Notes: generated by a model not told the origin, from the letters alone. Shown: positions 388 to 57,346, counted from the first letter of the stretch. The stretch is DNA of 64,000 nt from Thermoplasmata archaeon (GCA_046761005.1 JBHIFI010000002.1:1914-65913); one strand, 5' to 3'. Translations and numbers: made by a program.

Positions 388-1122
388 GTGGCGATTGAAG
401 TCAAAAGGGGGAGAATCAACAGCGTGTCCGCTAGTCGTAGGTTGAAGGTTGAAAGCAATCGCGCCGTCTCCTTGGGGAATGAGCTCTTTGCAAGAGGTCA
501 ATACGGAAAAGCGATGAAGGAATTCAACAGGGCTCTGAAGGCCAATCCAAAGAACGCCGTGGCATGGAATAACCGGGGAATCATACTCTGGAGAGCAGGA
601 AAACATCTCGAATCCATTCAATGTTTCAATAAGGCGATAAAGATTCATCCTAACTATTCCGATGCCTGGATGAACAAGGGTCTTGCGCTTTCCAAGATCG
701 CCAAGTATCAGAGAGCAATGAGATGTTATGACAGAGCCATGGAGATTGACCCTAATCATGAGATTGCCTGGAACAACAAAGGAAACATGCTGGCTAGGAG
801 AGGGAAATACAACGAAGCGCTGAAATGCTTTGACAAAGCACTCGACATAGACAGTGAGTACGTAGCGGCCTGGAACAATAGAGGCGCCACACTACTCAAG
901 GTAGGCAAATATCACGAGGCCCTGAGATGCTTCAATAGGGTTTTGAGAAGGCGGCCGAACTTCGCTGAAGTTTGGCTCCAAAAAGGCAGGGCTCTCATGC
1001 AACTTGGCCGTCCCAGGCACGCGATAATCTGTTTCGAGAAGGCTCTCTACTACCGAGAAACGTATCCCGCGGCTGAGAGGGCGCTGAAGGAGGCAATAGA
1101 AGCAAAGGAGGCAGTCGAATAG
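388..1122 (+). CDS. TPR-repeat protein (about 6 tandem TPR units); probably the N-terminal part of the downstream gene
   Basis: Repeated 34-aa TPR pattern (AWNNRGIILWRAGK..., AWMNKGLALSK..., AWNNKGNMLARRGK..., AWNNRGATLLKVGK..., VWLQKGRALMQLGR...). The GTG at 388 sits only about 4 nt after TATTTATAA (376-384), so the true start may be internal (for example GTG 424). The stop at 1120-1122 overlaps an open downstream frame (see findings). Confidence 0.7.
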   Translation: MAIEVKRGRINSVSASRRLKVESNRAVSLGNELFARGQYGKAMKEFNRALKANPKNAVAWNNRGIILWRAGKHLESIQCFNKAIKIHPNYSDAWMNKGLALSKIAKYQRAMRCYDRAMEIDPNHEIAWNNKGNMLARRGKYNEALKCFDKALDIDSEYVAAWNNRGATLLKVGKYHEALRCFNRVLRRRPNFAEVWLQKGRALMQLGRPRHAIICFEKALYYRETYPAAERALKEAIEAKEAVE

Positions 1123-1586
1123 TCGAGATAGAGCAGGACAGGTGCTCCCTGTGTGGGGCAACGATTCAACCCTATCTCAGATGCTCTCAGTGTGGATTCA
1201 CGTTAAGGAGAGACATCGAAGATCTAGTCGGGCCTTCCGAGACATGCCAGAGATGTAACCAAAGAGCTCGGATACAGTTCATTTGCTCCTCTTGCGGCTC
1301 GAAGTTCAGCTATAGTACGATAGTAAAAGAAGAGATTCAAGTCTGTCCTCTCTGTGGCTCCGAAGTCGAGAAGGGGGCGAAACAGTGCTCCTCTTGCGGA
1401 GCGATTCTCGTCAAGGAGAAGAAACCCAAGGAGATCATAATCGAGAAGACAAGGGAAAAGAGGAAGATTCTTGGAAGGATCTATGATGGGGATATCAAGG
1501 GGCTCAAAACCAGGCTCAAGATAGACGAGGATACCGCTGAGCTACTCTGTGGGAATGGGTACAATTCAGTTTGGAAGCTCAAACGT
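1077..1586 (+). other. Coding-like 5' extension of ORF 1587..5192: an array of about five CxxC...CxxC zinc ribbons with no in-frame ATG/GTG/TTG
   Basis: The frame of 1587..5192 is open back to the TGA at 1074-1076. It translates to ...DRCSLCGATIQPYLRCSQCGF...CQRCNQRARIQFICSSCGSKF...CPLCGSEVEKGAKQCSSCGAIL.... No canonical start codon occurs in these 170 codons. Confidence 0.6.
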
Positions 1587-4500
1587 GTGACTATATCCGA
1601 GCTGATGAAAACAGGACTCAGTAGGTCCGATGCGAGAAAGATAAAGGCGGCTGCGAAGAAGGTGCCAACCAAGCTGGCAGACGTGAAGAAGCGGATGGAG
1701 GAGATAGTTGAGCGGGAGTATGAGTGTCCCGTATGTTCCATGGTCGTGAGCGGTTTCGACGATTTCTGCTACAGCTGTGGGACACTCTTCATTACCGAGG
1801 TTGACGAGCGTATCATTCCCTATGATATCAGTAGGATAAGGGAGGGCATATCCACGCTCGCTTTCTTCGACGATAAGCTCCTCGCATATCCCGAAGATCC
1901 AATGCTCTGGTTCTCCAGAGGAGTTCTCCTCCGGTCAATGAGGAAGTATGAGAAGGCTCTCGATTCCATTGACAGGGCCCTTGAGCTTAATCCGTTTCTG
2001 AGGAATGCCTGGGTAATCAAGGCCGATATTCTCACAAAGATGAGAAGGTTCGACGAGGCGGCCTTCTGCTACAAGAAAGGAGTGGAGGAAGAGATTGGCA
2101 TAACCGATGAGGAACTTCGGGAGAGGAGGGAAGAGTTGAGAAGGTTCCTCAGCAGACTCAGCGAGGAAAGATGTCCTAATTGCGGTGCCACAGTTTTCGT
2201 TGGAACTGAAGTCTGTCCACTGTGCGGACAATCTCTCATCGAAGTTGAGAAGCTAGAGGTTCCAGAAGAGGAACTTCCCAAACTCCTTCCGCTCGAATAT
2301 AGAAAGGAATTTCCCAGATTGAAGCCTCTTGGCCTTGTCAATGGCCGTGGCCTCGTTAACGGAAGGGGGAAGGTAAACGGCCTAATCAATGGGAATGGTC
2401 TGATAAACGGTAGCGGCCTCACGAATCTCAGGGTGCTGAAACCTAGACCCGTCGTTTCCAGACTTTCTGCCATTGGAATCGCAGTCGTTATCCTACTCTC
2501 CGTTATATGGATGATGTATCCGGTTGAAAAGGTCGAAGTTGGAATAACCATAGATGGCAGTTTCGAGGACTGGTCTGGCGTTCGCTCATTCTCTGATCCA
2601 TTTCAGTCAGTGACGAATCCGAACATTAACATGTCCAAATACGCCATCGATCTTGAGGACGGAGTTCTCTCCTACCTCATCGAAGTTGAAGGCCTGCCTT
2701 TCCTTGATCCTTCAATCCCAGATTCATTCTTCGTTTTCATCGACAGTGATGCCAATCCTCAGACAGGCTACATCCTGCCAGAGCTTGGCGCAGACTACAT
2801 GGTAGACCTCTCAGGTTACAACGGCTCGCTCACGATGCACCGCCTCCTCAAGTTCAATATATCCCGCGAAAGGAATGATTGGGCTGGTTGGATCGGTGTG
2901 GGCGGTGCAAGAGCCGCCTTCAGAGATAACCGAATCGAACTCCAACTCAGCGGCCTAGTAATTGGCAACCTTTCCGACGACTTCCGCACCGTCCTATATG
3001 CAGATGACAACTCCGGAAATCTCACACATTCCTCGATAACCTTCGGAATGAGGGACAATCCCTCCCTTCTTGTCGTCCAGAGGGGATCTTCTGACGATGT
3101 AATCCCCCTGAGCCCAGAGGTTTCCGTTTTGAGGGTGGAACTCAAAGCAATTGAGAAGACAAGAGTGGGATCGATATCTCTCAGGGACTCCTTTTCAAAT
3201 CCCTATGAGTCAGTTTTGGAAACATCCCTTAATCTTGACAGTGGTGACAGACGCTCAATAAATGTTCCTGTGAATACTACACTTCTCGCTTCCCGTGTGG
3301 GCGAGCTTGTCACATTCTCTGTCTCAGGGCTTAGCGACAATCGTGGGAATGCAATCAAGTTCGACCTAACGGGTCGGCCCACCGTATGCTATATTGGCAA
3401 TCCACCCGCCGAAGAATTGATCGACGGGTGGTTCGGAAGTTGGAAAAACAAGACTCTAAGAGCGGATACCGATATGGTTGCGCCTAGGAACAGAAATCTA
3501 AACATTGAGAACTATTTTGCATTTCATAATCAGTCTGATAATTTTGCTTATTTCTACTTCAACGTCGAAGGAGAGGTCCTTGCAGGATTCGCCATTCCAC
3601 AGGTGAAAAAGAAGATAGTTCCCGCCGCACCGACGATTCCAGGGCCTCCTGGGATTCCCCCGCCGAACATGGGCGAAGACATAGCTAGAATCTATTTGGA
3701 CTCCAACTCCTCTATCCCATCTGAGTGTTTCATACACGAGATATATGCAGATGCACTGATTGACATCCGTGGGAAGTATGGGGAGATTACAAACCACACG
3801 GTTTATACGTGTCAGGGAGGTCTCTGGAGGCCCATCGATGATGCTGACTCTTACTCTGCGAACGATGAAACGCAAGTGGAAATCTCCTTGAGCCTTGCAT
3901 ACACACCCGATATAAGCAACACGAAGATATTTTTCACAATGACAGATTGGAAGAAAGATGTGGACAATGCAACCCTTGAGACGTCATGGGGGACTAAGAG
4001 CAGGACAAGAGCAATCTACACAATCGAGAGTACAACGAACTCGTTGACAACTACTGCGTTTTCCACGCAGAGGAAGCTTTTCTATGACGGAACGAACTTT
4101 TGGGCGATTTACTATGACGGAGGAGAAGGTGATACGCGCTATGAGTGGAGCGAGGACGGCGAAAGCTGGGATAATATCGCCTATAGCGTGTTCACTACCT
4201 CAGGAGTGATACACTCCTCGCTTTGGTATGATTACTCAAACCAGATCGTATATGTCGTCGGAGATGATTCTGCTTCTGACACTTCCGTGTTAGTGAGAAG
4301 GGGGACGGTATCACCCGGCACGAAAACGATCTCCTGGGGAACCGAGCAAACTGTTGTTATCTCAGCACTCGGTCTGCCAGCTAAGGTTCCCTTCATATGC
4401 AAGGTAGCTGATGAAAGGCTCTGGATTATTTCCAACACGAATGAGTCAGGGATACCCCCATTCAATGTCGCCGCCCGAAGGTCTACCAGTCCAGATGACA

Positions 4501-5192
4501 TACAAGAATGGGACGAGAGAACGGTTCTTAGAGACAGCGCGGTCGACGATAACTGGGTCTATCCAATAATATTGCCATTGTCTTCGAATGCCGAAGATGC
4601 GGATGCCTATGCGCTCTGGTACGCAGACGGGAATATAGAGGGAAAGAAATGGGAGAACAGCTCGAGTTCCTGGGAAAGCCAGGAGGACATTACAACGACG
4701 ACCGGTGATGTGGACTACAAGTCTCCATCTGCTGTTGTCGATGCGGATAATCAGGTTCATCTGATATATAGCGATTTGAGCGGTTACATGAGCTATATGT
4801 ACAGGGAGATCACGGGAACCTGGCAGACGGGACCGCAAATCGAAGGTACCGAAGCGGACAACCGGTATCCAACATTGACTCTACTGAATTCAACAGACCC
4901 AGAACAGCTCTATTCCTTCTATATAAGAAGCAATCAGATTTACTGCAAATACATGAGCATTGGCGGAGCGGAATGGTCATCAATAACTCTCACACAGAAC
5001 ACAGATACGAAGACGAATCTCACTTCAATATACTCTGTCTCATCGACAAGTCGTATTTCTTGGGAATGGCTCAACATTACTGGGTCCAATTACAATATCG
5101 ACTTTGAGAGGATCCCCGAGTTCCAAGACATCCTTGCACCCATTACTTTCGCCCTCCTGATACCCATAATTTTAAGGCGGAGAAAGAAGTAG
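1587..5192 (+). CDS. Large two-TM membrane protein with cytoplasmic TPR and zinc ribbons, an NG-repeat linker, a TM helix, an ~850-aa extracellular BNR/Asp-box beta-propeller-like region, and a C-terminal TM anchor with RRRKK tail
   Basis: The ORF track starts at GTG 1587. Elements seen: zinc ribbons CPVCS..CYSCG and CPNCG..CPLCG; TPR motifs at about residues 90-170; (L/I)VNG(R/N)G repeats at nt 2335-2430; TM helix AIGIAVVILLSVIWMMY (about 2464-2520); Asp-box motif WSEDGESWDN and related BNR-like S-x-D/G-x-T-W stretches; many N-x-S/T sequons; C-terminus IPEFQDILAPITFALLIPIILRRRKK. Confidence 0.75.
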   Translation: MTISELMKTGLSRSDARKIKAAAKKVPTKLADVKKRMEEIVEREYECPVCSMVVSGFDDFCYSCGTLFITEVDERIIPYDISRIREGISTLAFFDDKLLAYPEDPMLWFSRGVLLRSMRKYEKALDSIDRALELNPFLRNAWVIKADILTKMRRFDEAAFCYKKGVEEEIGITDEELRERREELRRFLSRLSEERCPNCGATVFVGTEVCPLCGQSLIEVEKLEVPEEELPKLLPLEYRKEFPRLKPLGLVNGRGLVNGRGKVNGLINGNGLINGSGLTNLRVLKPRPVVSRLSAIGIAVVILLSVIWMMYPVEKVEVGITIDGSFEDWSGVRSFSDPFQSVTNPNINMSKYAIDLEDGVLSYLIEVEGLPFLDPSIPDSFFVFIDSDANPQTGYILPELGADYMVDLSGYNGSLTMHRLLKFNISRERNDWAGWIGVGGARAAFRDNRIELQLSGLVIGNLSDDFRTVLYADDNSGNLTHSSITFGMRDNPSLLVVQRGSSDDVIPLSPEVSVLRVELKAIEKTRVGSISLRDSFSNPYESVLETSLNLDSGDRRSINVPVNTTLLASRVGELVTFSVSGLSDNRGNAIKFDLTGRPTVCYIGNPPAEELIDGWFGSWKNKTLRADTDMVAPRNRNLNIENYFAFHNQSDNFAYFYFNVEGEVLAGFAIPQVKKKIVPAAPTIPGPPGIPPPNMGEDIARIYLDSNSSIPSECFIHEIYADALIDIRGKYGEITNHTVYTCQGGLWRPIDDADSYSANDETQVEISLSLAYTPDISNTKIFFTMTDWKKDVDNATLETSWGTKSRTRAIYTIESTTNSLTTTAFSTQRKLFYDGTNFWAIYYDGGEGDTRYEWSEDGESWDNIAYSVFTTSGVIHSSLWYDYSNQIVYVVGDDSASDTSVLVRRGTVSPGTKTISWGTEQTVVISALGLPAKVPFICKVADERLWIISNTNESGIPPFNVAARRSTSPDDIQEWDERTVLRDSAVDDNWVYPIILPLSSNAEDADAYALWYADGNIEGKKWENSSSSWESQEDITTTTGDVDYKSPSAVVDADNQVHLIYSDLSGYMSYMYREITGTWQTGPQIEGTEADNRYPTLTLLNSTDPEQLYSFYIRSNQIYCKYMSIGGAEWSSITLTQNTDTKTNLTSIYSVSSTSRISWEWLNITGSNYNIDFERIPEFQDILAPITFALLIPIILRRRKK

Positions 5193-5197
5193 CGATA

Positions 5198-6394
5198 ATG
5201 CTAATGGAAATGGGCATCGTCGGGAAGCCAAACGTTGGGAAGAGCACCTTCTTTTGCGCAGCCACCCTAGCGCCCGCTGAAATTGCAGAGTATCCCTTTA
5301 CGACAATTGAAGCGAACAGAGGAATCACTTATGTGAGGGCCAAATGTCCTCACACGGAGCTAGGTGTCGAGTGCAATCCTAACAATGCGCCATGTGAGAA
5401 CGGAACCAGGCTTGTGCCAGTAGAAATGCTTGACGTTGCAGGTCTCGTTCCAGACGCTCACAAGGGAAGAGGACTCGGTAACAAGTTCTTGGACGACCTT
5501 AGGCAGGCCAAGGCCCTGATTCATATCGTAGATGCCAGCGGAGGGACGGACCACGAAGGAAACATCGTGGAGCTTGGAAGCCACGACCCTCTGTCGGATG
5601 TACAATTCCTCGATACCGAGATATCCCAATGGATGAAGGGCATTTTGGAGAAAGGATGGAAGAAGGTCGTCAGACAAATTCAATTGGAGGGGCTAAAGCT
5701 CGAGAAAGCAATTCAAGAGAGAATGACTGGCCTTGGATTCACTGATTCGATGGTTCTAGAAGCACTCAGGCAGACGGAGATAAATGAGAAGCCAATGAAC
5801 TGGTCAGAGGACGATGTGCTGCGGCTTGCGGATAGTCTGCGCAGGGTTGGCAAGCCCATGATAATTGCAGCAAACAAATGTGATATCACCCCAGATGAGA
5901 ACATAAGAAGACTGACGTCCTTGAAGGAAAAGATCGTGGTTCCGACGTCTGCAGAATCGGAGCTTGCGCTTCGGCGTGCAGCAAAGTCTAACCTCATATC
6001 ATACAATGTAGGGGACGATCATTTTGAGATTCTGGATGAGAGCAAGCTAAACGAGAAGCAGTTGAAGGGACTGAGATTCGTGAGCAATGTTCTGAAGAGA
6101 TTCGGAAACACCGGAATCCAGAAATGTGTAGAGGATGCCATTTTCAATCTTTTGAACATGATTGTCGTATATCCCGTTGAGGATGAGAACAAGTGGACCG
6201 ATAAGGACGGAAGAGTACTACCAGACGCCTACCTTCTCCCCAGGGGTAGCAATGCAAAGGATTTAGCCTACGAGGTGCATACCGAACTAGGAGACAACTT
6301 CATTCGTGCAATCGATGGTAGAACCAAGAGGGTCGTTGGTGCCGATCACGAGCTGAAGGATGAAGACATCATGACTATAGTGGCAAGGGCGTAA
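5198..6394 (+). CDS. Obg-like GTPase (YchF/OLA1/Ygr210-type) with C-terminal TGS domain
   Basis: G1 motif GKPNVGKST, G2 YPFTTIEANRG, G3 DVAGLV, G4 NKCD. The C-terminal ~75 aa (VVYPVEDE...RVVGADHELKDEDIMTIVA) look like a TGS domain. ATG 5198 lies 5 nt after the upstream stop. Confidence 0.75.
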   Translation: MLMEMGIVGKPNVGKSTFFCAATLAPAEIAEYPFTTIEANRGITYVRAKCPHTELGVECNPNNAPCENGTRLVPVEMLDVAGLVPDAHKGRGLGNKFLDDLRQAKALIHIVDASGGTDHEGNIVELGSHDPLSDVQFLDTEISQWMKGILEKGWKKVVRQIQLEGLKLEKAIQERMTGLGFTDSMVLEALRQTEINEKPMNWSEDDVLRLADSLRRVGKPMIIAANKCDITPDENIRRLTSLKEKIVVPTSAESELALRRAAKSNLISYNVGDDHFEILDESKLNEKQLKGLRFVSNVLKRFGNTGIQKCVEDAIFNLLNMIVVYPVEDENKWTDKDGRVLPDAYLLPRGSNAKDLAYEVHTELGDNFIRAIDGRTKRVVGADHELKDEDIMTIVARA

Positions 6395-6395
6395 G

Positions 6396-8765
6396 ATGGG
6401 AAGTTGGGATGTCAGATTGCTCAATGCCTCATACAAAGAGGAAAGCAAGGGTGTAGTCGTCGAACTCTTCGGCAAGACTCGTGATGATAGGTCCATCTCC
6501 ATAAGGTATGAGGGCTTCTATCCTTACTTCTATGTAGTCGACCCGCCCAAGATTCTTATAGATACGTTTGAGCATGACTCAGAGGTCAAAGAGATGCAAA
6601 GTGTCCAGCTCTGGGCGGATGGCGAGATGAGGAACTGCAAGCAGGTAATCCTGCATCATCCTTGGAAAACACCTGAGTATAGGGCACGTGCCAAGAGGTA
6701 TTGTGGTATTCTAGCCGCCGACATACCGTTTGCACTCCGCTTCATCTTTGACAAAGACCTGGGGTCATGTGTCAGGGTCGTGGGAGAAGAGGTGGAGGGT
6801 CCCTACAGCACAGAACTCGCTGTCAAGGCAGAGGGGTTTGAGCAGATAGAACCCTTCAATCCTTGGCTGAAGATCATGAGCTTTGACATTGAGAATAGCA
6901 TCAAGGATGGGAAAATATTCACGATATGTTGCGTCACAAGGGAGAACGGAGAGCTCCAAGATAAGTGCTTTGAGGGTTCAGAAAGGGAGATCATAGAGGG
7001 CTTCGTAGACTATGTAAAGGAAAAGGACCCTGACGTGATCACCGGATACAACATAGATGGATATGATATTCCCCTTCTTCGTGACAGGGCCAGAAAGAAC
7101 GCTATTCCCGAACTCTACCTTTCAAGAAACGATGTCCCCCTGCGGGAAGGTGGGGCGAGATTCTGGAGAATCTATGGGAGGATAGTCGCAGATGCATGGT
7201 GGAACGCCAAGAGAGAGCTCAGGCCGAAGCAAGAAACGCTGGATCACGTTGCAAGACTCGTTCTCGGCGAAGGCAAGAGGGACGTTGATCCAAGCAAGAT
7301 AGATGAGGAATGGGAGAAGGACAAAGAGAAGGTGATGAGATACTGCAAGAAGGATGCCCAGCTCGCATTGAGAATTCTGGAAAGCATTGGAGTTCTAGAG
7401 AAATCGATGGATTTGGCTATCGTTTCAAAGCTTCCAGTTGACTATGTTCTGAATGGCAGGACATCCACACTGATAGACTCCATACTCATCAGGACAGCCG
7501 ACCGCGCAAATGTCGGGGTCCCAATGACCCGCACAGGCCGCAGGGGCGAGTCCATAGAGGGAGGTTACGTTCACACTATTCCTTCTGGGCTCTACCATTG
7601 GGTCTGCGTTCTTGATTTCAAGGCGATGTATCCAAATCTCATAATCGCGAACAACATCTGTTTCACGACCCTTTCAGATGAGGGAACCATTTCCAGTCCT
7701 ACGGGGGCGAAATTCCTGAGCAAGGATGAAAAACTGGGGCTTCTGCCAAACATACTGAGTAACCTGATGAAGCAACGTGATGAGGCAAAGGCCCAGATGA
7801 GGGAGGCAGAGGGAGACAAAAGGAAGTACTATGACGGACTGCAGGATGCCATCAAGATATTGATGAACGCCTTCTACGGTGTCTTCGCCTCGAGCTTCTA
7901 CAGATTTACCAATCCCAAAATCGGAGCAACAATAACTGCAATCGCTAGAGAAAATACGAAAAGCGTTATCTCCCAACTAGAGGACGAGGGTCTGAGGGTG
8001 ATATACGGTGATACCGACAGCGTCTTTTTCCAATCACCTGAGGAAGGTGTGGATTCGTCCGTCAGAATCGGAGAGGGAATCGCGGAAAGATTTTCTAAGG
8101 GCGGGGCAATCCTGGAATTCGAGAAGGTCCTGGAGCCGTTCTTCTCTCACGGAAGGAAGAAGAGATACGTGGGCAAGGTTGTGTGGCCGGAGGAGGATCT
8201 TCTTGTTCGAGGCTATGAGTTGAGGAGAACGGATGCCTTTGATCTCCAGAGCGAAGGGCAGGCGATGCTGTTCGAGAGAATAATGGAAAACGACATAGAC
8301 GGTGCCATTCGCATCGCAAGAGATCTGGTTTCCGATGCTAGAGAGGGAAAGGTTCCTTTCGAGAAACTTGTCATATCCCGCACGGTGCGGGATGAGAAAA
8401 GCTACGTCAGTCCTGATGCACTTCCCAATGTTCAGGCGGCCCGCAAGTTGAGGGAGTGGGGGTATGAGGTCGTTCCCGGAATGAAGGTCTCCTGGATTGT
8501 GACAGATGGGAAGAAGGCTCCACAGCAAATCTCACCCTATGTCAGCGGAAGAGAGTTCGAGGATACGCCAGACTGGAACTACTACGCCCGCAGGTTGGCG
8601 CACACACTCGGCTACGTCACTGAGGTCTTCGGATGGGATGAGAAGAGTCTTTTGGCGGGAAGTCAGCAGGTCACTCTTTTCCACGAGGATTTCGGTACCA
8701 AGAGGAACACTGATGTGAAGGTCAAGAAGACAGAAAAGAAGCTCACTCTGGAAGATTTCATGTGA
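6396..8765 (+). CDS. polB: DNA polymerase, family B (archaeal PolB)
   Basis: Exonuclease motif FDIE (MSFDIENS), polymerase motif A DFKAMYPNLI, motif C YGDTDS (VIYGDTDSVFF), KKRY motif (GRKKRYVGK). 789 aa. Confidence 0.9.
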   Translation: MGSWDVRLLNASYKEESKGVVVELFGKTRDDRSISIRYEGFYPYFYVVDPPKILIDTFEHDSEVKEMQSVQLWADGEMRNCKQVILHHPWKTPEYRARAKRYCGILAADIPFALRFIFDKDLGSCVRVVGEEVEGPYSTELAVKAEGFEQIEPFNPWLKIMSFDIENSIKDGKIFTICCVTRENGELQDKCFEGSEREIIEGFVDYVKEKDPDVITGYNIDGYDIPLLRDRARKNAIPELYLSRNDVPLREGGARFWRIYGRIVADAWWNAKRELRPKQETLDHVARLVLGEGKRDVDPSKIDEEWEKDKEKVMRYCKKDAQLALRILESIGVLEKSMDLAIVSKLPVDYVLNGRTSTLIDSILIRTADRANVGVPMTRTGRRGESIEGGYVHTIPSGLYHWVCVLDFKAMYPNLIIANNICFTTLSDEGTISSPTGAKFLSKDEKLGLLPNILSNLMKQRDEAKAQMREAEGDKRKYYDGLQDAIKILMNAFYGVFASSFYRFTNPKIGATITAIARENTKSVISQLEDEGLRVIYGDTDSVFFQSPEEGVDSSVRIGEGIAERFSKGGAILEFEKVLEPFFSHGRKKRYVGKVVWPEEDLLVRGYELRRTDAFDLQSEGQAMLFERIMENDIDGAIRIARDLVSDAREGKVPFEKLVISRTVRDEKSYVSPDALPNVQAARKLREWGYEVVPGMKVSWIVTDGKKAPQQISPYVSGREFEDTPDWNYYARRLAHTLGYVTEVFGWDEKSLLAGSQQVTLFHEDFGTKRNTDVKVKKTEKKLTLEDFM

Positions 8766-8981
8766 GGCTCTGGAAGGCCAGTCATCATCTCGTTTCAAGA
8801 GAGTTCCATGCTCTACCTACATTCTTTTGGCAAAGCCATTTATATCCGACGAATACTTATGAGGGTCAAGTCGCGAGATCATATCTCGCTGGAGATGTGC
8901 CAAAGGTGAATCCACAAACGCCCGGGAGGGCTGCGAATGAACGAGGAAACAGAAGAGAAGAAATCGACTCGACACAGGAAC

Positions 8982-9560
8982 ATGTATCATTATGTTAGGG
9001 ATGCGTGGAAGAAACCCGATGAGGGATACCTCAAAGAATTACAGTGGCAGAGATTGATTGAGTGGAGGAGAGGGCCCTCGTTCCAGAGGGTTGAGAGACC
9101 CACGAGGATAGACCGCGCTCGAGCACTGGGATACAAGGCGAAGCAGGGCTACGTCATCGTAAGGGCAAGGGTGAGAAGAGGAGGCCTACGAAAACCAACG
9201 ATCAGAGGAGGCCGAAGAGCGAAGAGGAAGGGAATAAAGAAGATAACGATGGCAAAGAGCATTCAGAGAATCGCAGAAGAGAGAACCGCCAAGAGGTACC
9301 CTAACCTGGAGGTTCTCAACTCCTATTGGATTGGTGAGGATGGGAGGCACAAATACTACGAAGTCATACTCGTTGACCCGCATCATCCTGTGATAAAGAA
9401 CGATCCCAAGATTTCCTGGATAGGAGAAGGGTCCCACAAAAGAAGGGTTTATCGGGGACTGACGTCCGCTGGAAAGAAGAGTCGCGGTCTAAGGAAGAAA
9501 GGAAAGGGGGCGGAAAAGGTCCGACCGTCCGCAGGAACTCATGACCGTAAGGGGAAGTAG
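8982..9560 (+). CDS. rpl15e: 50S ribosomal protein L15e
   Basis: [68 protein letters not shown] is typical L15e. I start at the internal ATG 8982 (193 aa) rather than the ORF-track 8937, because L15e normally begins M-x-x-Y-(I/V)-R-(D/E)-A-W. Confidence 0.8.
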
Positions 9561-9561
9561 C

Positions 9562-10413
9562 TCACTCCCTTATTCTCTTCAGTAGATTATCTAATTCCTC
9601 TTTGCTCAGCCCGATTGTGGGGTAGAATACTGGAATCCCCTTCGCGGGTGTGTACTTATCCCGGTCCTCCCATGTCGTTACGAATCCTTGACAGCGGGAT
9701 TTATCAATGAGAGGATCTAGGTCAGACCAACTGTCCGGAGAATAGGCTTTCAGGCGGATGTCCCAATTCCTGAGCGGGTCAAAGGTCTCCGACTCGTCAA
9801 AACGCGAGATGTGAACCTTGCATCCCCTCTTCATCATCAGCCATGCTCCTACGAGACCCTCAGAAGAGTCTACAACCGCAAGCACCGCTCCCTGCGTGCC
9901 GAGCGGCATCCCGCCAGGTGCAGGAATTCTCTCGCTGAATACATAGGCGCCTTTTCCCCTCACTTCAATGAAGACCTCAATATCGGGCTGGCTCAAATCT
10001 ACCTCGAGATTCTCGATGCGGGACTGTATCGCCCTTCCTACATAGCTCGCAAGCTCCTGACTCGTGTACTTGTGATCTCCAGTCCTCCTCGTTCTAACGG
10101 CAAATTTCTTTCCCGGTTTCAATTCTGAGCGAAACCTCTTGATCGCGACTTGCGCTATGTCCTCCATGTCAGAACTCGTAGTTTCCGCAACGCTAAATGA
10201 CGTAATACCGAATATTCTGCTCAGAATCTCTGAGGCGTGTCGAATCTCATCTGTATCCAGATAGATTCTTCCATATTCGGACCTCATCATGCACTCCACG
10301 CCCCTATGAAGGAAATAATCCTGTATGTTTGTGACAAGCCTATCCTGAAATTTTCGCCTCACCCAGTTGCTTTTCAGAGCGATTTCACCATATCTTATCA
10401 GGAATCTTGGCAT
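9562..10413 (-). CDS. THUMP-domain protein, ThiI-like with degenerate PP-loop (short tRNA sulfurtransferase paralog)
   Basis: N-terminal ferredoxin-like + THUMP pattern (RYGEIALKSNWVRRKF... KKFAVRTRRTGDHKYTSQELASYVG). The region that aligns to the ThiI PP-loop (GG.P.G..G.VLLLSGGIDSPVAAYLMMKRG) reads GGMPLGTQGAVLAVVDSSEGLVGAWLMMKRG, so the SGGxDS motif is lost. The protein is only 283 aa versus about 380+ for ThiI. Confidence 0.6.
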   Translation of the reverse strand: MPRFLIRYGEIALKSNWVRRKFQDRLVTNIQDYFLHRGVECMMRSEYGRIYLDTDEIRHASEILSRIFGITSFSVAETTSSDMEDIAQVAIKRFRSELKPGKKFAVRTRRTGDHKYTSQELASYVGRAIQSRIENLEVDLSQPDIEVFIEVRGKGAYVFSERIPAPGGMPLGTQGAVLAVVDSSEGLVGAWLMMKRGCKVHISRFDESETFDPLRNWDIRLKAYSPDSWSDLDPLIDKSRCQGFVTTWEDRDKYTPAKGIPVFYPTIGLSKEELDNLLKRIRE

Positions 10414-10484
10414 GTGTCCTCCCCTATGCCATGCTTGGATAATATCTTTCTCGGTAGTTTAATAGTGCTCATATCTATTTCCGC

Positions 10485-11288
10485 GTGATGGAAACTTGGA
10501 CGGCGGCCATCCTTATCACGATGGTCTTCGGTGTAGCCTTCATTTATTCCAACCTAGGTCTAGGCGGAGGTCTTCTGTTCGTCCCCATCCTTCTCTCGCT
10601 CACAACCTATCCCAAGGAAGTCGTCGTGCCGATCTCACTGACCTTCACGATTGCAACATCACTTTCAGCCACGCTGAACCATCAAAGAAAGGGTCTGGTT
10701 GACTTCAATCTCGCTCTCGCTCTCCTTTCCGGAGCGCTTGTCGGTGCAGTTTTCGGAGTACTATTCAATCTCAATGTGCCAAAAGAGGTATTCTACGCGG
10801 TTTTCATTGCCGTCGTCCTTGTCATGGCGTCAAAGATGCTCAGAGACTGGATGCAGAAGGCGAGGGACGAGGATAGCGACGATGTATCCAAGGTGACGAG
10901 GCCTAGAAAGTTTCTGAGTTCCACTGGAACACTTGCCTCAGGATTCACATCAGGGAGTCTCGGCATCGGTGGCGGTCTTGTCAATGTTCCACTCATGGAA
11001 TATGTCTTGGGTTTGGGGGCGAGGAGGGCCATAGGAACGTCAAGCCTGATGATAATATTCACCGGAGCCTTTGGCTTCTTCACTTATCTTCTTCTTGGAA
11101 CTCCGGAGCCAATCGATTTGAATCTGGTGCTAATGCTATGGCCCTTTGTTTTCGTGGGCGCATTCGTCGGCTCCAGATGGGGTCTCGAAAAGCTGAAGAG
11201 CAGGGTCGTGGCTCTTATTTTCATAGTCGTGGTTTTCCTAGCCGCCCTCAAAATGGCACTCGATCTCTATTTCTTCCTTCTGCTGTGA
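10485..11288 (+). CDS. TauE/SafE (DUF81) family membrane transporter (sulfite/anion exporter-like)
   Basis: Two internal repeats, each with the glycine-rich signature (LGLGGGLLFVPILLSL; GSLGIGGGLVNVPLMEYVLGL). About 8 predicted TM helices. Confidence 0.75.
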   Translation: MMETWTAAILITMVFGVAFIYSNLGLGGGLLFVPILLSLTTYPKEVVVPISLTFTIATSLSATLNHQRKGLVDFNLALALLSGALVGAVFGVLFNLNVPKEVFYAVFIAVVLVMASKMLRDWMQKARDEDSDDVSKVTRPRKFLSSTGTLASGFTSGSLGIGGGLVNVPLMEYVLGLGARRAIGTSSLMIIFTGAFGFFTYLLLGTPEPIDLNLVLMLWPFVFVGAFVGSRWGLEKLKSRVVALIFIVVVFLAALKMALDLYFFLLL

Positions 11289-11371
11289 TGTTGGGAGAGT
11301 CAAGTCTTTCTGCCTTCCAGAACTCATGATTCCAAAGGATGTTAGAATGACACCTCTGAGCCTTGCCAGAA

Positions 11372-12034
11372 TCATGCGAACATGGTCCTCGGTGTTGCCG
11401 AAAAGGTCCACTTTTCCTTGTTTTTGTAAAGGTCGCGAAGAAGATTCGTGGCAACTTTTGTCTCCAACTTACTTAGGAGTCTTGCGACATGCTTGCACAT
11501 CAGCTTCTCCGACATCCAAGCTATCCAGTCACCGCAATCATGAGCGAATATTCTTGACTTGAGATCTACTTTAATGAGATACTCCTTGACTCTGGAAACG
11601 ATGTACTCGTCCGTTACCTTATCTATTCTCACTCTGTCATCGAGAATCTCTCTTGAACTCTGGATCCTCTTCCTTCCCACGAAATGGAGCAAGAGGTTAT
11701 CTAGCGAGAGGTTCTCAGGATCTGCATCTTCAGCAAATACAAGATCAGGCGTTCTCTCAGAACCGCCGATAGCCTCCTGAAACTCCTTCGGATCTATTCC
11801 GAATCTCTCAAGGGCCGAATCGATTCTTTGGTCGATGTATAGGCACTCCTCCTCAGTGTATTTCCTTCGGCTCCTGTCCATGCTGAAGAACCTCCGCGCG
11901 AGCTTCGCTCTTCTTGGAGTGTCCAACGGATACTTCCAGTTTTCAGGATCAGCGTACAGTTCTGGATCAGTGGGGAAGCCTGGAGGAGGCCTCATCCATG
12001 CACCTCCCCTTCGGACAGGCCTTTTCCCCTTCAT
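11372..12034 (-). CDS. Hypothetical protein (no recognisable domain); lies immediately downstream of the transposase
   Basis: Uninterrupted 220-codon ORF with plausible composition. The basic/proline-rich N-terminus (MKGKRPVRRGGAWMRPPPGFP) may precede the true start. Confidence 0.4.
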   Translation of the reverse strand: MKGKRPVRRGGAWMRPPPGFPTDPELYADPENWKYPLDTPRRAKLARRFFSMDRSRRKYTEEECLYIDQRIDSALERFGIDPKEFQEAIGGSERTPDLVFAEDADPENLSLDNLLLHFVGRKRIQSSREILDDRVRIDKVTDEYIVSRVKEYLIKVDLKSRIFAHDCGDWIAWMSEKLMCKHVARLLSKLETKVATNLLRDLYKNKEKWTFSATPRTMFA

Positions 12035-12102
12035 CAGAAATCAAACTGCCAACAACTATTCAAAACTTCTTGCAGAAAAGGCTTTGAGACGAAATTACCC
12101 TA

Positions 12103-12987
12103 TCATCCTAGCTGGGAGGAGAAGCCGGGCTTGATTCCGAATAGGTACCTCAGATAGCACAGTCTCTTCAGGTTGTGGCAGCAGGCCCTTGTGAAGGCCT
12201 CCGTGCGTCTTCTCCATCTCAATCTCCGACGAAGGGGGAGAGGGAAATCCCTCTTGAAGATGGAATACCCGCTTTCTGCAATGGATCGGGAGTGATACTC
12301 CCTCAACCATTCCTGAGTGTCACGAATGAAGGAATGAAGCATGTGAATCCACGCATCGCTCCCTTTCCTCTTGAGGGTTATTCCCCTCTTAGGGAAGAGC
12401 CTGGGAGCGGCTCCCAAATCCTCTATGGCAGTGCAGTTCTCTCTTGATAGGAATCCCGCATCCCCGCTGACGACCTCTAGGAAAGAATATCCCTTCGAGT
12501 CCTCCATCATGGAGGGAAGCATTGGAGACTCGTTCCCATCTGGGTTCTCCATCACATGAAAGGAGGAGAAGAGCTTGTATCTCCTTCCTATGGCCGTGAC
12601 TATCTTCTCATACCTTTTAGTCTTCTTTCCTCCCTTCTTGTCCGACTCGTAGTTCCTCTCCATGGACCTCGAGAGTCCTGTGCCGTCAACTGCAATCTCT
12701 TTCTCCACATCTCTGACTGCATCCTGAGTAAGGGAGAAGAGCATATCCAGGAGTTTCCTCACATCGTGATTCTCATACGCTCTTTCGACCGTCTTGTAGG
12801 AGAACACCCTCGATAGGTCAAGCTTCTCCTTGAAGAGAAGGAGGAGGCCCTCCGCCTTCCTGTTGGGCACACCGGAGCCCAAGCAGAGAAAACGAAGCTT
12901 TTCGTAGAGGCCACACGGTGCCAGCTTCCGGCATATACTAATATCCTCTTCTACGTCTGAAAGCCTCCTCAACGAGAACCTGATCAT
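12103..12987 (-). CDS. DDE transposase, IS4/IS5-superfamily-like (DDE_Tnp_1 type)
   Basis: Candidate DDE triad: AVDGTGLS (D1), SGDAGFLSREN (D2), and the C-terminal block YHSRSIAESGYSIFKRDFPLPLRRRLRWRRRTEAFTRACCHNLKRL, which matches the Y..R..IE..F..K ... R-rich ... YNL.R signature of IS5-like transposases. The annotated ATG 12987 overlaps the relE 3' end in another frame; the true start may be the internal TTG/GTG. Confidence 0.7.
   Translation of the reverse strand: MIRFSLRRLSDVEEDISICRKLAPCGLYEKLRFLCLGSGVPNRKAEGLLLLFKEKLDLSRVFSYKTVERAYENHDVRKLLDMLFSLTQDAVRDVEKEIAVDGTGLSRSMERNYESDKKGGKKTKRYEKIVTAIGRRYKLFSSFHVMENPDGNESPMLPSMMEDSKGYSFLEVVSGDAGFLSRENCTAIEDLGAAPRLFPKRGITLKRKGSDAWIHMLHSFIRDTQEWLREYHSRSIAESGYSIFKRDFPLPLRRRLRWRRRTEAFTRACCHNLKRLCYLRYLFGIKPGFSSQLG
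12103..12987 (-). mobile_element. Insertion sequence (transposase ORF span; terminal inverted repeats not identified, ends undetermined)
   Basis: Single DDE transposase ORF. I could not locate terminal IRs or a TSD by eye in 12035-12102 or 12988-13060. Confidence 0.45.
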
Positions 12988-13198
12988 CCTTTATTACGTA
13001 TAGGAATCTGTTATTCCCCAGACGGAGCCGATAGAACGGTTTCTTACCTCTCATCTTCTTGATATCACATCCAGACCGGGTTTTGTATGGGTCATCTGAC
13101 AGTCTTTTCAAACTCTCATAGCATCTTTTTCTCTCACCCTTAGGAAGGGAATCCAGATATTTTTCAACATCTGGATGAAGAAAAACAGAATAACTCAT
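12938..13198 (-). CDS. relE: RelE/ParE-family toxin (type II toxin-antitoxin mRNA interferase)
   Basis: 86 aa. ...KKPFYRLRLGNNRFLYVIKDDQVLVEEAFRRRRGY matches the archaeal RelE fold signature (YR.R.GdyR.iY.v..d..v.il.i..RgraY). It overlaps the upstream RHH gene by 4 nt. Confidence 0.7.
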   Translation of the reverse strand: MSYSVFLHPDVEKYLDSLPKGERKRCYESLKRLSDDPYKTRSGCDIKKMRGKKPFYRLRLGNNRFLYVIKDDQVLVEEAFRRRRGY

Positions 13199-13422
13199 TC
13201 CAAACCTCTAGATCTACCGTATTCTTCAAGAGAGATGTGCTTATCTCTATCCCTCTCCGCCTTTTCGTGCAAGTAGGAAGAAAAATCATCGAATTTCTCA
13301 CGTAATAGTTCTCGAATAAATTCCCCCTTAGAGGTATATTCTCCCCTTTCCACAAGTTCTTCTAGCTCCTCGTATTGAGTTTCCGTCACTCTAACGTTCA
13401 ATGTTCTTGTTTTCGCCGTCAC
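13195..13422 (-). CDS. Ribbon-helix-helix (CopG/ParD-like) antitoxin
   Basis: The translation from the internal GTG (VTAKTRTLNVRVTETQYEELEELVERGEYTSKGEFIRELLREKF...) is a typical RHH antitoxin N-terminus. The ORF-track start is 13452; I prefer GTG at 13422. Confidence 0.6.
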   Translation of the reverse strand: MTAKTRTLNVRVTETQYEELEELVERGEYTSKGEFIRELLREKFDDFSSYLHEKAERDRDKHISLEEYGRSRGLE

Positions 13423-13573
13423 GTGTACCACTGTGTTGCTAATGTAACACACGATTCATATAACTTTCGGTTAGCCAACCATTTACCGCCTACCAAGAAA
13501 ACGAGGGAGGTACGGCTAGGATTTCACTTAACGTTCTATGGGTATCAACTGCGTTGAATGATTCTTGATAGTC

Positions 13574-14455
13574 TCAACGATTCCGAACCGACCAACAGCA
13601 TTTCTTATATTTCTTCCCACTTCCACAAGGACACGGTTCGTTCCGACCTATCTTTTTTCGTTTGGATTTCTTTGGCGTGGTTCTTGACCTTACTTTCTTC
13701 TCGGGTTTAAAACATGCCCACCATTCCATGCAACGTATGGTATCGTCTATGAATTGGTAATGTTCATCGTCTTCAAGACGGATAAGATTTTCTTCCCATT
13801 CCATAGAGAGATGTTCGTTCACATCTTCTAAATTGATGAAGAACGGATCGACTAGACCTTCTTCATGGGCCTTCTTCATATCCTCAAAAACCTCTCTAGC
13901 GCATAGGTCCGAACTACATGCTACCAGTCCGGTCCAAACGAATGAGTATGTTCTTTCAAGTTTTCCTGTAAAGAGACTCTTGTAATAAGCAATTATTTCA
14001 TCCCGTGTTTTCTCACCATTGACTACCAACGTCAAAAGCGCTCTTAAGCCTGCATCTCTCACATATCCATCTGCGTCTCTGCTCTCTATGAGTTGTTCTA
14101 TCAAGGTTGTATCACCTTGGCATACGGATGCGAGAACACGCGGCAAGTCCTCACACACGAACTCCCCGGCAATGCTATCAGAAGTATCCCCCGGGTGAGA
14201 AAAAAGGTCAACTATTAGAGGGTAGGCACGTTTTTCCCTAAACTGTGCAAGCAGAAACATCGAATATATGTGTGCAAAGTAGTCAGGTCTCTCTTTGATG
14301 TAATCAATGTTCCTTTCGGCGTTTTCCAAAATCCTCAGAAGCTCAGGTATGATAACCTCTTTCTGTTTGATGGCCTCCTGGACGGCCTCATAGGGAAATG
14401 AACCTGTATTGTATTCCAATTTTGACAAGATTTCCTGGGTTTCCAGAATAACCAC
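13574..14455 (-). CDS. DUF1186-like protein with C-terminal SEC-C metal-binding motif (YecA/SecA-C-like)
   Basis: The C-terminus [18 protein letters not shown] is the SEC-C motif (the zinc-binding motif at the SecA C-terminus). The gene is about 40% GC versus about 50-55% for neighbouring core genes (hand-counted 60-nt samples). Confidence 0.6.
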
Positions 14456-14563
14456 CTCTTAAGTGCCGGATTCAGCGTAACGGGATGCAGAAGGAGATTG
14501 AATTGCTATACTAAGTAATTTCTCGGTCATGCGCGTTCCGCTGCCTTAGGAAGACACTGGGTA

Positions 14564-14648
14564 TGCGGAGGCGAGGATTCGAACCCCGGAACTCCTTCGA
14601 GACTAGACCCTGAATCTAGCGCCGTTGACCAGACTTGGCTACCTCCGC
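14564..14648 (-). tRNA. tRNA-Leu (anticodon CAG), 85 nt, no encoded CCA
   Basis: Cloverleaf derived by hand: acceptor GCGGAGG/CCTCCGC; D arm GCCA-AGTCTGGTCAA-CGGC; anticodon stem CTAGA/TCTAG with loop TTCAGGG; 14-nt variable arm (class II); T arm CGGGG-TTCGAAT-CCTCG; discriminator A. A TTTTTATT TATA-like box lies about 33 nt upstream. Confidence 0.85.
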
Positions 14649-14718
14649 ATCGAGCGTTTGCTCTAATACGGTGGCGAATAAAAAGCTTGTGAGCGGGAAT
14701 TGAAGAAAAGAAAGTGGT

Positions 14719-14943
14719 TTATCTCTTCCTCTTCATTATTTTCATCCAGCCGCCAGATTCATAGACCTGGAGCCTTCTTCTCTTAAGTGTCGACTCAAAC
14801 TCGTCCCAGGTTATGATTTCCAAGCGGGCATTCTTTCCCTTAGTGAACTGGATGCCGTCCGTTCCTTTTACTCTTCCCGGCTTCAGTCCCTTCTTCTTCG
14901 CTATCTCCATCGCCTTTTCGGGTGTTATTGGTTGCATCACCAT
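14719..14943 (-). CDS. Small basic hypothetical protein (74 aa)
   Basis: Compact ORF (MVMQPITPEKAMEIAKKKGLKPGRVKGTDGIQFTKGKNARLEIITWDEFESTLKRRRLQVYESGGWMKIMKRKR) with coding-like composition. No domain recognised. Confidence 0.4.
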   Translation of the reverse strand: MVMQPITPEKAMEIAKKKGLKPGRVKGTDGIQFTKGKNARLEIITWDEFESTLKRRRLQVYESGGWMKIMKRKR

Positions 14944-15098
14944 TTCTTTCCCTCCGATCTTTCGGTCCTATCTCTGGCTTATAGCCAGACGGTAATTATG
15001 TTATCCATATAAATACTTTTTCGAGCCAGGCTCTCACCAGAGGCAGTTTTAGGGAGCCAAATGAATAAAAATAACTATATGAAATATGATAGGGATTC

Positions 15099-56722: not shown

Positions 56723-57346
56723 ATGGACTCCGTGAGGAGGGGCGGTTCCTGTATTTTCGTAATGCCTGTGATAAGGGGCCTCGTCAGTGAGGCGAGGGAG
56801 GTAGATCGGGCGGTTCAGGAGACGAAACCGGATGCGCTTGGTATTTGCGTATCAAAAGAGGAACTCAAGACGTTGGACGCCCTTGGAGGTCAAAGGACAG
56901 AGCCCTCAAGCTCTCACGAGGAGGCCTATATGAGGGGACTGGAAAGATTCGGAGAGGTGAGGAAGCCACCGCCATGCTACTCTGAGGGGTTATCAATGGC
57001 AAAACGTCTGAGAATACCGTGCATCGCCTTGGACATGGATGAGAGTCTATATAGTGAGGCATACTGCACTTTCGTTTCTGTCGTTGATGTGATGAGGCAA
57101 ACGAGGGATTCTCGTGTAGTTCTGGAGAAGGAATTCCAGGCTCAGTCGCCCGAGGAATTCGTTTTGGAACTCGATGCGTACGTCAATAGGCACAAGGGTT
57201 TTGAGAGGCTGGAGCGGGAAAGGGAGAGATATATAGCTCTGAGACTGTCCAAAATGCAAGGCAAATGGTCAAGAATTCTTGCCCTTGTTGAAGTAGAAAG
57301 GGCAAATGGTGTCATCGAGAACTTGGAACGACTACTCCCTCTCTAG
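56723..57346 (+). CDS. Hypothetical protein, possibly TraB/PrgY-like; co-operonic with the upstream regulator
   Basis: 207 aa; starts 5 nt after the previous stop. A weak N-terminal resemblance to TraB-family proteins (....EVDRAVQETKPDALGICVSKEELKTL) is the only basis for the product call. Confidence 0.4.
   Translation: MDSVRRGGSCIFVMPVIRGLVSEAREVDRAVQETKPDALGICVSKEELKTLDALGGQRTEPSSSHEEAYMRGLERFGEVRKPPPCYSEGLSMAKRLRIPCIALDMDESLYSEAYCTFVSVVDVMRQTRDSRVVLEKEFQAQSPEEFVLELDAYVNRHKGFERLERERERYIALRLSKMQGKWSRILALVEVERANGVIENLERLLPL

Follow-up and report, generated by a model that had tools for sequence, protein, structure and literature searches.

We analyzed a 64-kb stretch of DNA (hereafter, the window) from an uncultured Thermoplasmatota archaeon, in which an open reading frame (ORF) called at 1587..5192 on the plus strand encodes a large membrane protein between the gene of a soluble TPR protein upstream and that of a YchF-type GTPase downstream (5198-6394, 595.8 bits). 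An earlier note, made from the sequence alone, had described this ORF as a receptor-like protein with cytoplasmic TPR and zinc-ribbon modules and a large extracellular domain. The ORF is uninterrupted and real (1201 aa), and the coordinates assigned within it were correct to within 3 nt, but its 5' boundary has to be moved. G+C content is flat at ~0.49 over the whole window. The membrane-protein gene has an open reading frame from nt 1077 onward, in which no ATG, GTG or TTG occurs before 1587, and nt 1128-1586 form a coding stretch for three additional Cys4 zinc ribbons and a helix-hairpin-helix (HhH)-like segment. This stretch aligns to the N-termini of homologs (extended-frame residues 15-23, for example, match residues 1-10 of P0006 and P0017), is under strong purifying selection against five orthologs (ratio of nonsynonymous to synonymous substitution, dN/dS, 0.04-0.10), and has 12/12 of its zinc-ribbon Cys kept in 6/6 aligned orthologs. 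GTG 1587, in turn, falls within the conserved HhH-like segment. The real gene is about 1128..5192, and the earlier 5' end was too short.

The start codon of this revised gene is apparently noncanonical. In the window and six close orthologs (L001, L005-L008 and L011), the TAG of the upstream TPR gene lies 5 nt ahead of the start codon, with a GGAGG upstream; where the window has ATA 1128, L005-L008 and L011 have ATG and L001, which comes from another sample, has ATT. A near-cognate start is therefore present in two independent assemblies (ATA in the window, within 1107-1130, and ATT in L001, within 9781-9805), and gene callers would shorten such genes, as in ORF 1587..5192 and in the public gene call for the L001 ortholog P0001, which starts at an internal ATG (locus position 10001) ~66 codons past the homologous start. 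The position of ATA 1128 just past the upstream stop suits reinitiation, and expression probably proceeds by termination-reinitiation at the near-cognate codon, although ATA 1119, with better Shine-Dalgarno spacing than ATA 1128, may serve as an alternative start. Other explanations of the missing ATG were considered and rejected: a frameshift fusion with the upstream TPR gene, as a slippery site is absent and ortholog L004 shows a plain TGATG overlap; TAG read-through from the TPR gene, as a second TAG follows two codons on; and a sequencing error, as L001 likewise lacks an ATG.

The product is a type-II, N-in membrane glycoprotein of ~150 kDa. Hydropathy analysis (Kyte-Doolittle, KD) yields one strong helix at aa 289-311 (KD 2.46), the single transmembrane (TM) helix of the earlier note and here termed TM1, as well as a weaker C-terminal helix (1.7). 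We applied the positive-inside rule to 86 family members by counting K+R in the 15 residues flanking each helix: mean counts are 4.13 on the N side versus 0.77 on the C side of TM1, and 0.44 on the N side versus 5.31 on the C side of the tail helix. Sequon density per 100 aa is 0.39 in the N-terminal part versus 1.14 in the middle, or 3-fold higher in the ectodomain. In the window protein, 16 of the 17 sequons lie between the helices and one in the cytoplasmic part, and composition shuffles of the 869-aa middle segment give 9.6 +/- 2.6 N-x-S/T sequons in place of its 16; the N-terminal part has 22 Cys residues and the middle 5. As the 445-aa, zinc-ribbon-filled N-terminal domain is without a signal peptide, it must be cytoplasmic. 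The topology is N-in, ectodomain-out, C-in: positive-charge bias, sequon density and Cys distribution agree with the N-in layout proposed earlier, including its ~850 extracellular residues rich in N-glycosylation sequons.

The cytoplasmic part comprises five Cys4 zinc ribbons, a degenerate HhH, two to three TPRs and a juxtamembrane NG repeat (Table 1). Both module types named in the earlier note are borne out in the 1201-aa ORF, where Pfam places TPR_1 (PF00515) at aa 107-136 (E=1.9e-11) and four CxxC pairs are found, as CxxC...CxxC zinc ribbons; the three further N-terminal ribbons, which had been overlooked, score 29.0 bits (Zn_Ribbon_1) and 29.8 bits (Zn_ribbon_15), both over cutoff. Similarly, DZR (PF12773) is near-threshold at aa 190-215 of the 1201-aa ORF and reaches 46.7 bits versus a cutoff of 27.3 on the extended protein. 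PDB sequence searches with the cytoplasmic part gave only TPRs, with consensus TPR proteins matching 1869..2081. Opposite the HhH-like segment, homolog P0002 (37% identity over the whole protein; PF14520/PF12826/PF00633) reads LLKVPGIGRFRAEILCEAGFNSIRKL, a typical HhH, and the window protein has no match to any Pfam HhH family at E<=0.01. Pfam and NCBIfam scans of the window protein revealed no kinase, cyclase, receiver or other output domain.

The linker ahead of TM1, previously read as six (L/I)VNG(R/N)G units, is a genuine repeat of the form (h-x-N-G-x-G)n, although not a clean sixfold one: the window protein has four full and two partial units (LVNGRG, LVNGRG, KVNG, LINGNG, LINGSG, LTN). 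In a 73-sequence alignment the N and G columns are at least 90% invariant, 157 of 226 family members have at least three NG in the 80 aa ahead of TM1, and up to 13 units occur across the family, on the cytoplasmic face beside TM1. No DNA tandem repeat is detected in the region by TRF, so the repeat is maintained at the protein level, and no match to it was found in Pfam, PDB sequences or the literature searched. A few family members, as called, consist of little beyond Met, NG repeats, TM, ectodomain and tail, possibly as truncated gene calls.

Table 1. Features of the membrane-protein locus, in window coordinates
Feature	Position	Strand	Details
Upstream partner gene, soluble 244-aa six-TPR protein	388..1122	+	TPR_1 E=1.5e-55, 6 stretches; TAG 1120-1122
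Start region	1107..1130	+	GGAGG 1107-1111; ATA 1119-1121 overlapping TAG 1120-1122; ATA 1128-1130, probable near-cognate start
Revised coding sequence	1128..5192 (about)	+	1354 aa + stop; 1587..5192 is its 3' 89%
Three Cys4 zinc ribbons	1143..1397 (1143-1193, 1245-1295, 1344-1397)	+	C-x2-C-x9-11-C-x2-C patterns
Degenerate HhH-like segment	1524..1661	+	within continuous alignment to P0002
Fourth zinc ribbon	1725..1778	+	CPVC...CYSC
TPR module, 2-3 repeats	1869..2081	+	TPR_1 46.8 bits vs 27.8 cutoff (extended N-terminus)
Fifth zinc ribbon, double-zinc-ribbon type	2172..2225	+	CPNC...CPLC
Juxtamembrane (h-x-N-G-x-G)n hexapeptide repeat	2331..2429	+	GLVNGRGLVNGRGKVNGLINGNGLINGSGLTNL
TM1, type-II signal anchor (N-in)	2463..2519	+	KD 2.46
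Ectodomain module 1, CBM9/DOMON-like beta-sandwich	2544..3038	+	starts ITIDGSFEDW
Ectodomain module 2, Ig-like beta-sandwich	3060..3398	+	boundaries inferred
Ectodomain module 3, second CBM9-like sandwich	3411..3992	+	ELIDGWFGSW ... D-x-D...G...ADY; Pro-rich loop; model A
Distal seven-bladed beta-propeller	4074..5111	+	closest to PLL/BP39L lectins
Degenerate Asp-box-like hairpin, blade 1	4149..4169	+	SEDGESW; single; one residue short
PEF-CTERM-like tripartite tail	5112..5189	+	IPEFQDILAPITFALLIPIILRRRKK; IPEF-x-D-x3-P, short Pro-containing hydrophobic segment, RRRKK

Outside the membrane, the ectodomain consists of a three-module stalk and a distal head. The motif set IDGxFxDW / DxDxxxxTGY / GADY occurs twice in the family consensus as an internal repeat, and we accordingly read the stalk as CBM9-like, Ig-like, CBM9-like, with domain limits inferred from DSSP. 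The stalk has a CBM9/DOMON-like beta-sandwich fold: its listed structural relatives include a putative carbohydrate-binding protein (4jpq), the DOMON-like ethylbenzene dehydrogenase gamma subunit (2ivf_C), Sas6 (7uwu) and CBM9 itself (1i82), and a Foldseek search places glucodextranase 1ug9 on top (E=1e-5), followed by multi-Ig adhesins, alpha-2-macroglobulins, RbmA and an S-layer protein. Aa 305-815 have no match in Pfam or NCBIfam, and the three motifs define a CBM9/DOMON-like subfamily not described before.

The head is a seven-bladed propeller of the PLL/BP39L type, with PLL/BP39L lectins, CylK and integrin-alpha propellers as closest structural neighbors; the fold match agrees with weak beta-propeller-lectin matches in NCBIfam (NF052348 and NF052349; aa 1014-1139), and the head of the window protein would thus be lectin-like. 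The earlier note was right to place a beta-propeller outside the cell, but not to class it as a BNR or sialidase-type one. This class is rejected on Pfam, motif and fold, as the window protein has no BNR (PF02012) match at E<=1, zero canonical S-x-D-x-G-x-T-W Asp-boxes and seven blades instead of a six-bladed sialidase-like fold, and no sialidase is found among the top 60 structural matches of the propeller. The BNR-like repeats reported before are consequently dropped, and of the proposed Asp-box (WSEDGESWDN) there remains a single Asp-box-like hairpin, a variant one residue short. A match of this kind ([ST]-x-D-x-G-x-x-[WFY]) is present in 12 of 21 propeller-bearing homologs, in ten of them at the equivalent position.

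The window protein belongs to a large family. A search of 5.8 billion proteins returned 167 matches, among them P0001 (64% identical, full length), and a phmmer search with the segment spanning NG repeat, TM and stalk against 1.84 billion cluster representatives returned 780 at E<=1e-3, 563 at E<=1e-10 and 175 at E<=1e-30, these being clusters at 50% identity. All named sources are Thermoplasmata, Thermoplasmatota, Methanomassiliicoccales, 'Methanobacteriota' or 'Euryarchaeota' metagenome-assembled genomes (MAGs), except for one labelled only 'archaeon'; no cultured host is among them, and a search from P0033 likewise gave only MAGs among source-named entries. The family has no characterized member and its annotations are limited to 'hypothetical', 'TPR' or 'zinc ribbon'; its core is not covered by a Pfam or NCBIfam model, and a literature search linking the Thermoplasmata S-layer with zinc ribbons and TPRs found nothing relevant. 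What had seemed a combination without any described counterpart is therefore no one-off, and its co-occurrence in related genomes, which the earlier note suggested looking for, is borne out by a Thermoplasmatota-only family of MAG sequences.

The order of parts in this family is cytoplasmic modules, (h-x-N-G-x-G)n, a basic stretch, TM1, a ~490-aa stalk starting with IDGxFxDW, a distal domain and a tail of the form I-P-E-F-x-[DE]-x3-P, hydrophobic segment, RRRR. The NG repeat, the TM, the double-CBM9 stalk and the PEF tail are constant. Cytoplasmic modules vary (the whole cytoplasmic region has a median length of 359 aa) among zinc ribbons, HhH (PF14520/PF12826 in ~40% of top homologs), TPR arrays up to ~1000 aa and one ArsR-type winged helix-turn-helix (wHTH). 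The latter is found in P0225 (709 aa; one of 244 proteins), in which an ArsR/SmtB-type winged-helix domain (E=3.5e-13) is followed by a TM and the CBM9-like core, making it a membrane-tethered HTH version of the architecture. Distal domains vary as well, with the propeller of the window protein in just 21 of 120 homologs and LTD, FG-GAP, beta-helix or subtilase domains in others. Four extra N-terminal helices of P0100 were examined as a CPBP protease and rejected (E=0.05, no catalytic motifs visible). At L037, two family members stand in tandem (5522-11254 and 11255-15934; 1910 and 1559 aa), both with NG repeats, a double IDGxFxDW core and PEF tails.

Genomic context is conserved around the orthologs. 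In 20/20 ortholog-group loci the family gene is directly flanked by a homologous TPR gene (36-87% identity), and in near relatives the TPR partner is 81-87% identical versus 64-68% for the membrane protein; the six-TPR protein is a conserved operon partner, with apparent translational coupling. The order TPR gene, family gene, YchF, PolB, L15e, ThiI, TauE is common to the window, L001 and L004, further window ORFs matching, by position and size, the family-B DNA polymerase and ribosomal protein L15e genes of the syntenic loci. Twelve MAGs carry two family loci each, and this, together with the conserved synteny, is the behavior of a core gene. Context differs for P0033, a Methanomassiliicoccales-type member with MttB genes nearby, and for a paralog subgroup (1455-1543 aa), which is without the TPR partner. 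Directly downstream in five of these paralog loci lies a convergent FlaK-like prepilin peptidase gene (minus strand; L021 13593-14570, L024 13598-14701, L025 13778-14824, L027 13662-14618 and L035 13663-14601), and at L028 (13597-14703, minus strand) a multi-TM ORF resembles the FlaK-like genes by position and size only.

Elsewhere in the window, on the minus strand, other genes encode proteins with C-terminal features of their own. An Opp-type substrate-binding protein (38530-40806), whose gene start overlaps the stop of the gene for a 2752-aa protein, ends in PIPDIGTF, a hydrophobic segment and RRREK, a tripartite-looking anchor with a different motif. The 2752-aa surface protein (40803-49061) combines a signal peptide with subtilase-like and Ca-tandemer-type repeats; behind its C-terminal TM comes an unusual acidic tail, ~70 aa long and rich in PEEE. 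Finally, a 1270-aa protein (57332-61144) begins with a type IV pilin-like signal of archaeal class III (TIGR02537, 17.6 bits versus a 20-bit cutoff) and has an Asp/Gly-rich C-terminus, GDVDGDYWDDVV.

The C-terminal tail is conserved across the family as a three-part element. The layout of motif, hydrophobic helix and basic cluster noted before is present in the window protein as a PEF motif, a hydrophobic segment and a basic cluster, and recurs in 110 of 120 homologs, a wider count of the family giving 190 of 226 members; every sequence of a 62-tail alignment has the P and the E, and conservation of F is 90% or more. In the tail, the stretch free of charged residues is short, with a median of 17 residues (24 for TM1), and it contains Pro in 93% of members, which suits a cleavable sorting signal. 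TIGR03024 (PEF-CTERM) matches more of these tails than any other NCBIfam model, albeit weakly (33 of 62 at E<=10, best E 1.2e-5), and when ten tails were compared singly with this model, whose curated cutoff is 23 bits, one scored 25.4 bits, six scored 9-15 bits and three, that of the window protein included, had no match. We regard the tail as a PEF-CTERM-like variant and a putative PEF-CTERM member; the PEF/PGF-CTERM-type signal proposed in the earlier note is supported by the homologs and not by a TIGR03024 match of the window tail or by a companion enzyme in the DNA searched.

Candidates for such an enzyme were sought in the window and in 42 related loci (0.67 Mb; together 0.74 Mb). The four multi-TM ORFs of the window were rejected, corresponding to a MamO-C-terminal-like (TauE-type) membrane protein, an archaetidylinositol phosphate synthase, HtpX and one unassigned protein, as were the multi-TM genes beside the paralog subgroup, being FlaK-like prepilin peptidases, and the other multi-TM ORFs of the loci, which read by eye as CcmC/CcmB, EamA, TauE, glycosyltransferase and similar proteins. 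Screening the multi-TM ORFs of the 0.74 Mb for a C-[ST]-G motif, a weak heuristic, returned nothing.

Taken as observed, the gene limits, domain order, topology, folds, family syntax and operon partner lead us to read the protein, with confidence that is about evenly balanced, as a dual-anchored scaffold for surface display or adhesion, with a constant stalk, a variable head, a sorted tail and an internal docking site for the TPR partner. In such a scaffold the stalk would hold a glycan- or ligand-binding head at the cell surface, while the short C-terminal helix would act as a temporary anchor. A sortase-type enzyme would recognize the invariant I-P-E-F motif, and the tail helix would probably be cleaved or replaced by lipid. 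The N-terminal domain would remain cytoplasmic and dock the translationally coupled six-TPR partner, so that the surface coat would be physically tied to cytoplasmic partners. Between the transmembrane sensor and the scaffold that the earlier note had left side by side, the scaffold is preferred: it fits the evidence better, and a signaling output is without support, no output domain being found.

Several observations weigh against this reading. The window tail has neither a TIGR03024 match at E<=10 nor a PGF-CTERM match in NCBIfam, and no archaeosortase- or exosortase-like ORF is present in the 64-kb window or in the related loci (0.67 Mb). PEF-type tail matches to long ORFs number 29 in the 0.74 Mb, and every one belongs to a family member, which implies that the tail could be a family-specific second helix, and the other surface proteins of the window end in different C-terminal anchors. 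Known archaeosortase substrates, whose C-terminal TM is temporary, go through Sec and have signal peptides (PMC6098224), whereas the window protein has 445 cytoplasmic residues ahead of a signal anchor and no signal peptide. Ligand binding, glycosylation and processing are predictions from folds and architecture, the lectin models score 20.5 bits (E=2e-4) and 12.7 bits against cutoffs of 200 and 400 bits, gene adjacency is what points to the putative interaction with the TPR partner, and the cytoplasmic domain is too conserved and elaborate for a passive anchor. The tail could also be a second membrane helix that is permanent and bears an interfacial motif specific to the family, giving a two-TM hairpin with both ends in the cytoplasm, and it is to this alternative that the lack of a window-tail match, the nine of ten single tails below 23 bits or without match, the restriction of PEF-type tails to the family, the differing anchors of neighboring surface proteins and the missing archaeosortase all lend weight. 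An invariant P-E-F at the helix edge, the short span and the frequent Pro are nevertheless typical of cleaved sortase-type signals and atypical of stable helices, PEF-CTERM is the NCBIfam model matching most tails, and the inspected DNA is a small fraction of each genome, such that we see the permanent helix as a serious possibility that falls short of being favored.

A further alternative is a transmembrane sensor or membrane-tethered regulator, either ToxR/CadC-like or released by intramembrane proteolysis, in which ligand binding to the ectodomain would alter the activity or release of a nucleic-acid-binding zinc-ribbon/HhH module. The succession of an N-in DNA-binding-type module, a TM and an extracellular domain is a ToxR-like layout, and the HhH domains in ~40% of top homologs, the wHTH in the cytoplasmic position of P0225 on the family core, and a long cytoplasmic region under purifying selection all speak for it. 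Yet DNA binding by HhH is non-specific, and the HhH of the window protein is too degenerate to be matched by Pfam; the wHTH version is a single protein of 244, the housekeeping context does not suggest a regulon, and, beyond the missing output domain, the free swapping of cytoplasmic modules over a constant stalk and tail suits a scaffold better; we therefore consider the sensor unlikely. Still less probable is a membrane-anchored carbohydrate-active enzyme, with the propeller as lyase, hydrolase or transferase and the CBM9-like modules targeting polysaccharide: no catalytic family model in Pfam or NCBIfam matches, structure and sequence alike match best to lectins without catalytic activity, most of the family does without the propeller, and the cytoplasmic domain would be left unexplained. 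A decaying gene, in which loss of the ATG left a pseudogene or an N-terminally shortened protein from GTG 1587, would account for the 170 in-frame codons upstream of 1587 without a canonical start and for the internal start of the public L001 gene call, but the upstream stretch is stop-free, constrained and complete in its Cys, a near-cognate codon recurs at the homologous start in two assemblies at a distance from the upstream stop that suits reinitiation, and GTG 1587 is internal to a conserved domain, which renders decay highly improbable.

Among known systems, the window protein falls with archaeal surface glycoproteins bearing sortase-type C-terminal signals, within which the family itself is uncharacterized. 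The closest counterparts of the tail are PEF-CTERM substrates, paired with ArtC (TIGR03024; Haft et al. 2012 as cited in PMC5244752, PMC9723798), which likewise combine a C-terminal P-E-F, a short hydrophobic segment and an Arg/Lys cluster on a large, glycosylation-rich surface protein. They differ in that the family motif is longer (I-P-E-F-x-[DE]-x3-P), the window protein has a 445-aa cytoplasmic domain and a signal anchor instead of an N-terminal signal peptide, ArtC is not found in the DNA examined (window and 0.67 Mb of loci), and the PEF-CTERM/ArtC system is described for Methanosarcinales and ANME-2 (PMC5244752; PMC9723798), not Thermoplasmatota. The S-layer glycoprotein of Haloferax volcanii (PGF-CTERM/ArtA; PMC6098224), a large envelope protein that is N-glycosylated and has its C-terminal helix, a temporary anchor, cut off and exchanged for a lipid, is our working model for the tail; its motif, however, is PGF, it is a Sec substrate whose signal peptide is cleaved, it lacks a cytoplasmic domain, and neither its sequence nor its domains are homologous to the CBM9-like stalk or to the propeller. 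The PLL/BP39L/CV39L lectins (PDB 5c9o, 6gxr, 6gxs; NF052348, NF052349) share 9-12% sequence identity with the window propeller but are small soluble bacterial proteins, and BNR/Asp-box sialidase-type propellers (PF02012) have in common with it the beta-propeller and an Asp-box-like hairpin, of which the window protein has one, in its first blade. CBM9 (T. maritima Xyn10A, 1i82), DOMON-like folds and glucodextranase accessory domains (1ulv/1ug9) resemble the stalk in fold, without a Pfam or NCBIfam sequence match and, unlike CBM9 systems, without an attached glycoside hydrolase. ToxR/CadC-type bitopic regulators and integrin alpha subunits are analogies only: there is no ToxR wHTH homology, with the ArsR-type wHTH in P0225 alone, the orientation of the window protein is opposite to that of integrin alpha subunits, and unlike either it has a second, C-terminal anchor.

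Little is known of the envelopes of uncultured Thermoplasmatota; for a cultured relative, Methanomassiliicoccus luminyensis, a double membrane has been reported (PMC6098224). The 780 clusters, the two loci in 12 MAGs, the housekeeping neighborhood and the absence of a core model are features of a major envelope component. In its broadest form, which we put forward tentatively and regard as rather doubtful, the family would represent a class of Thermoplasmatota-wide double-anchored envelope proteins, first exemplified by the window protein, in which a signal-anchored ectodomain of CBM9-like stalk and exchangeable head ends in a novel form of the archaeosortase-type signal. These would be the first sortase-type substrates with a large cytoplasmic domain, whose NG repeat, zinc-ribbon, HhH and TPR modules and TPR partner would couple the surface to cytoplasmic protein or DNA partners mechanically or informationally, in analogy, for uncultured archaeal lineages, to the links made by integrins or ToxR. 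Should the PEF-like tail indeed be processed, archaeosortase-type sorting would reach a new lineage and also a new class of substrates, proteins that combine a type-II anchor with a large cytoplasmic domain. The invariant NG repeat and dedicated TPR partner offer handles on the connection between surface and cytoplasm.

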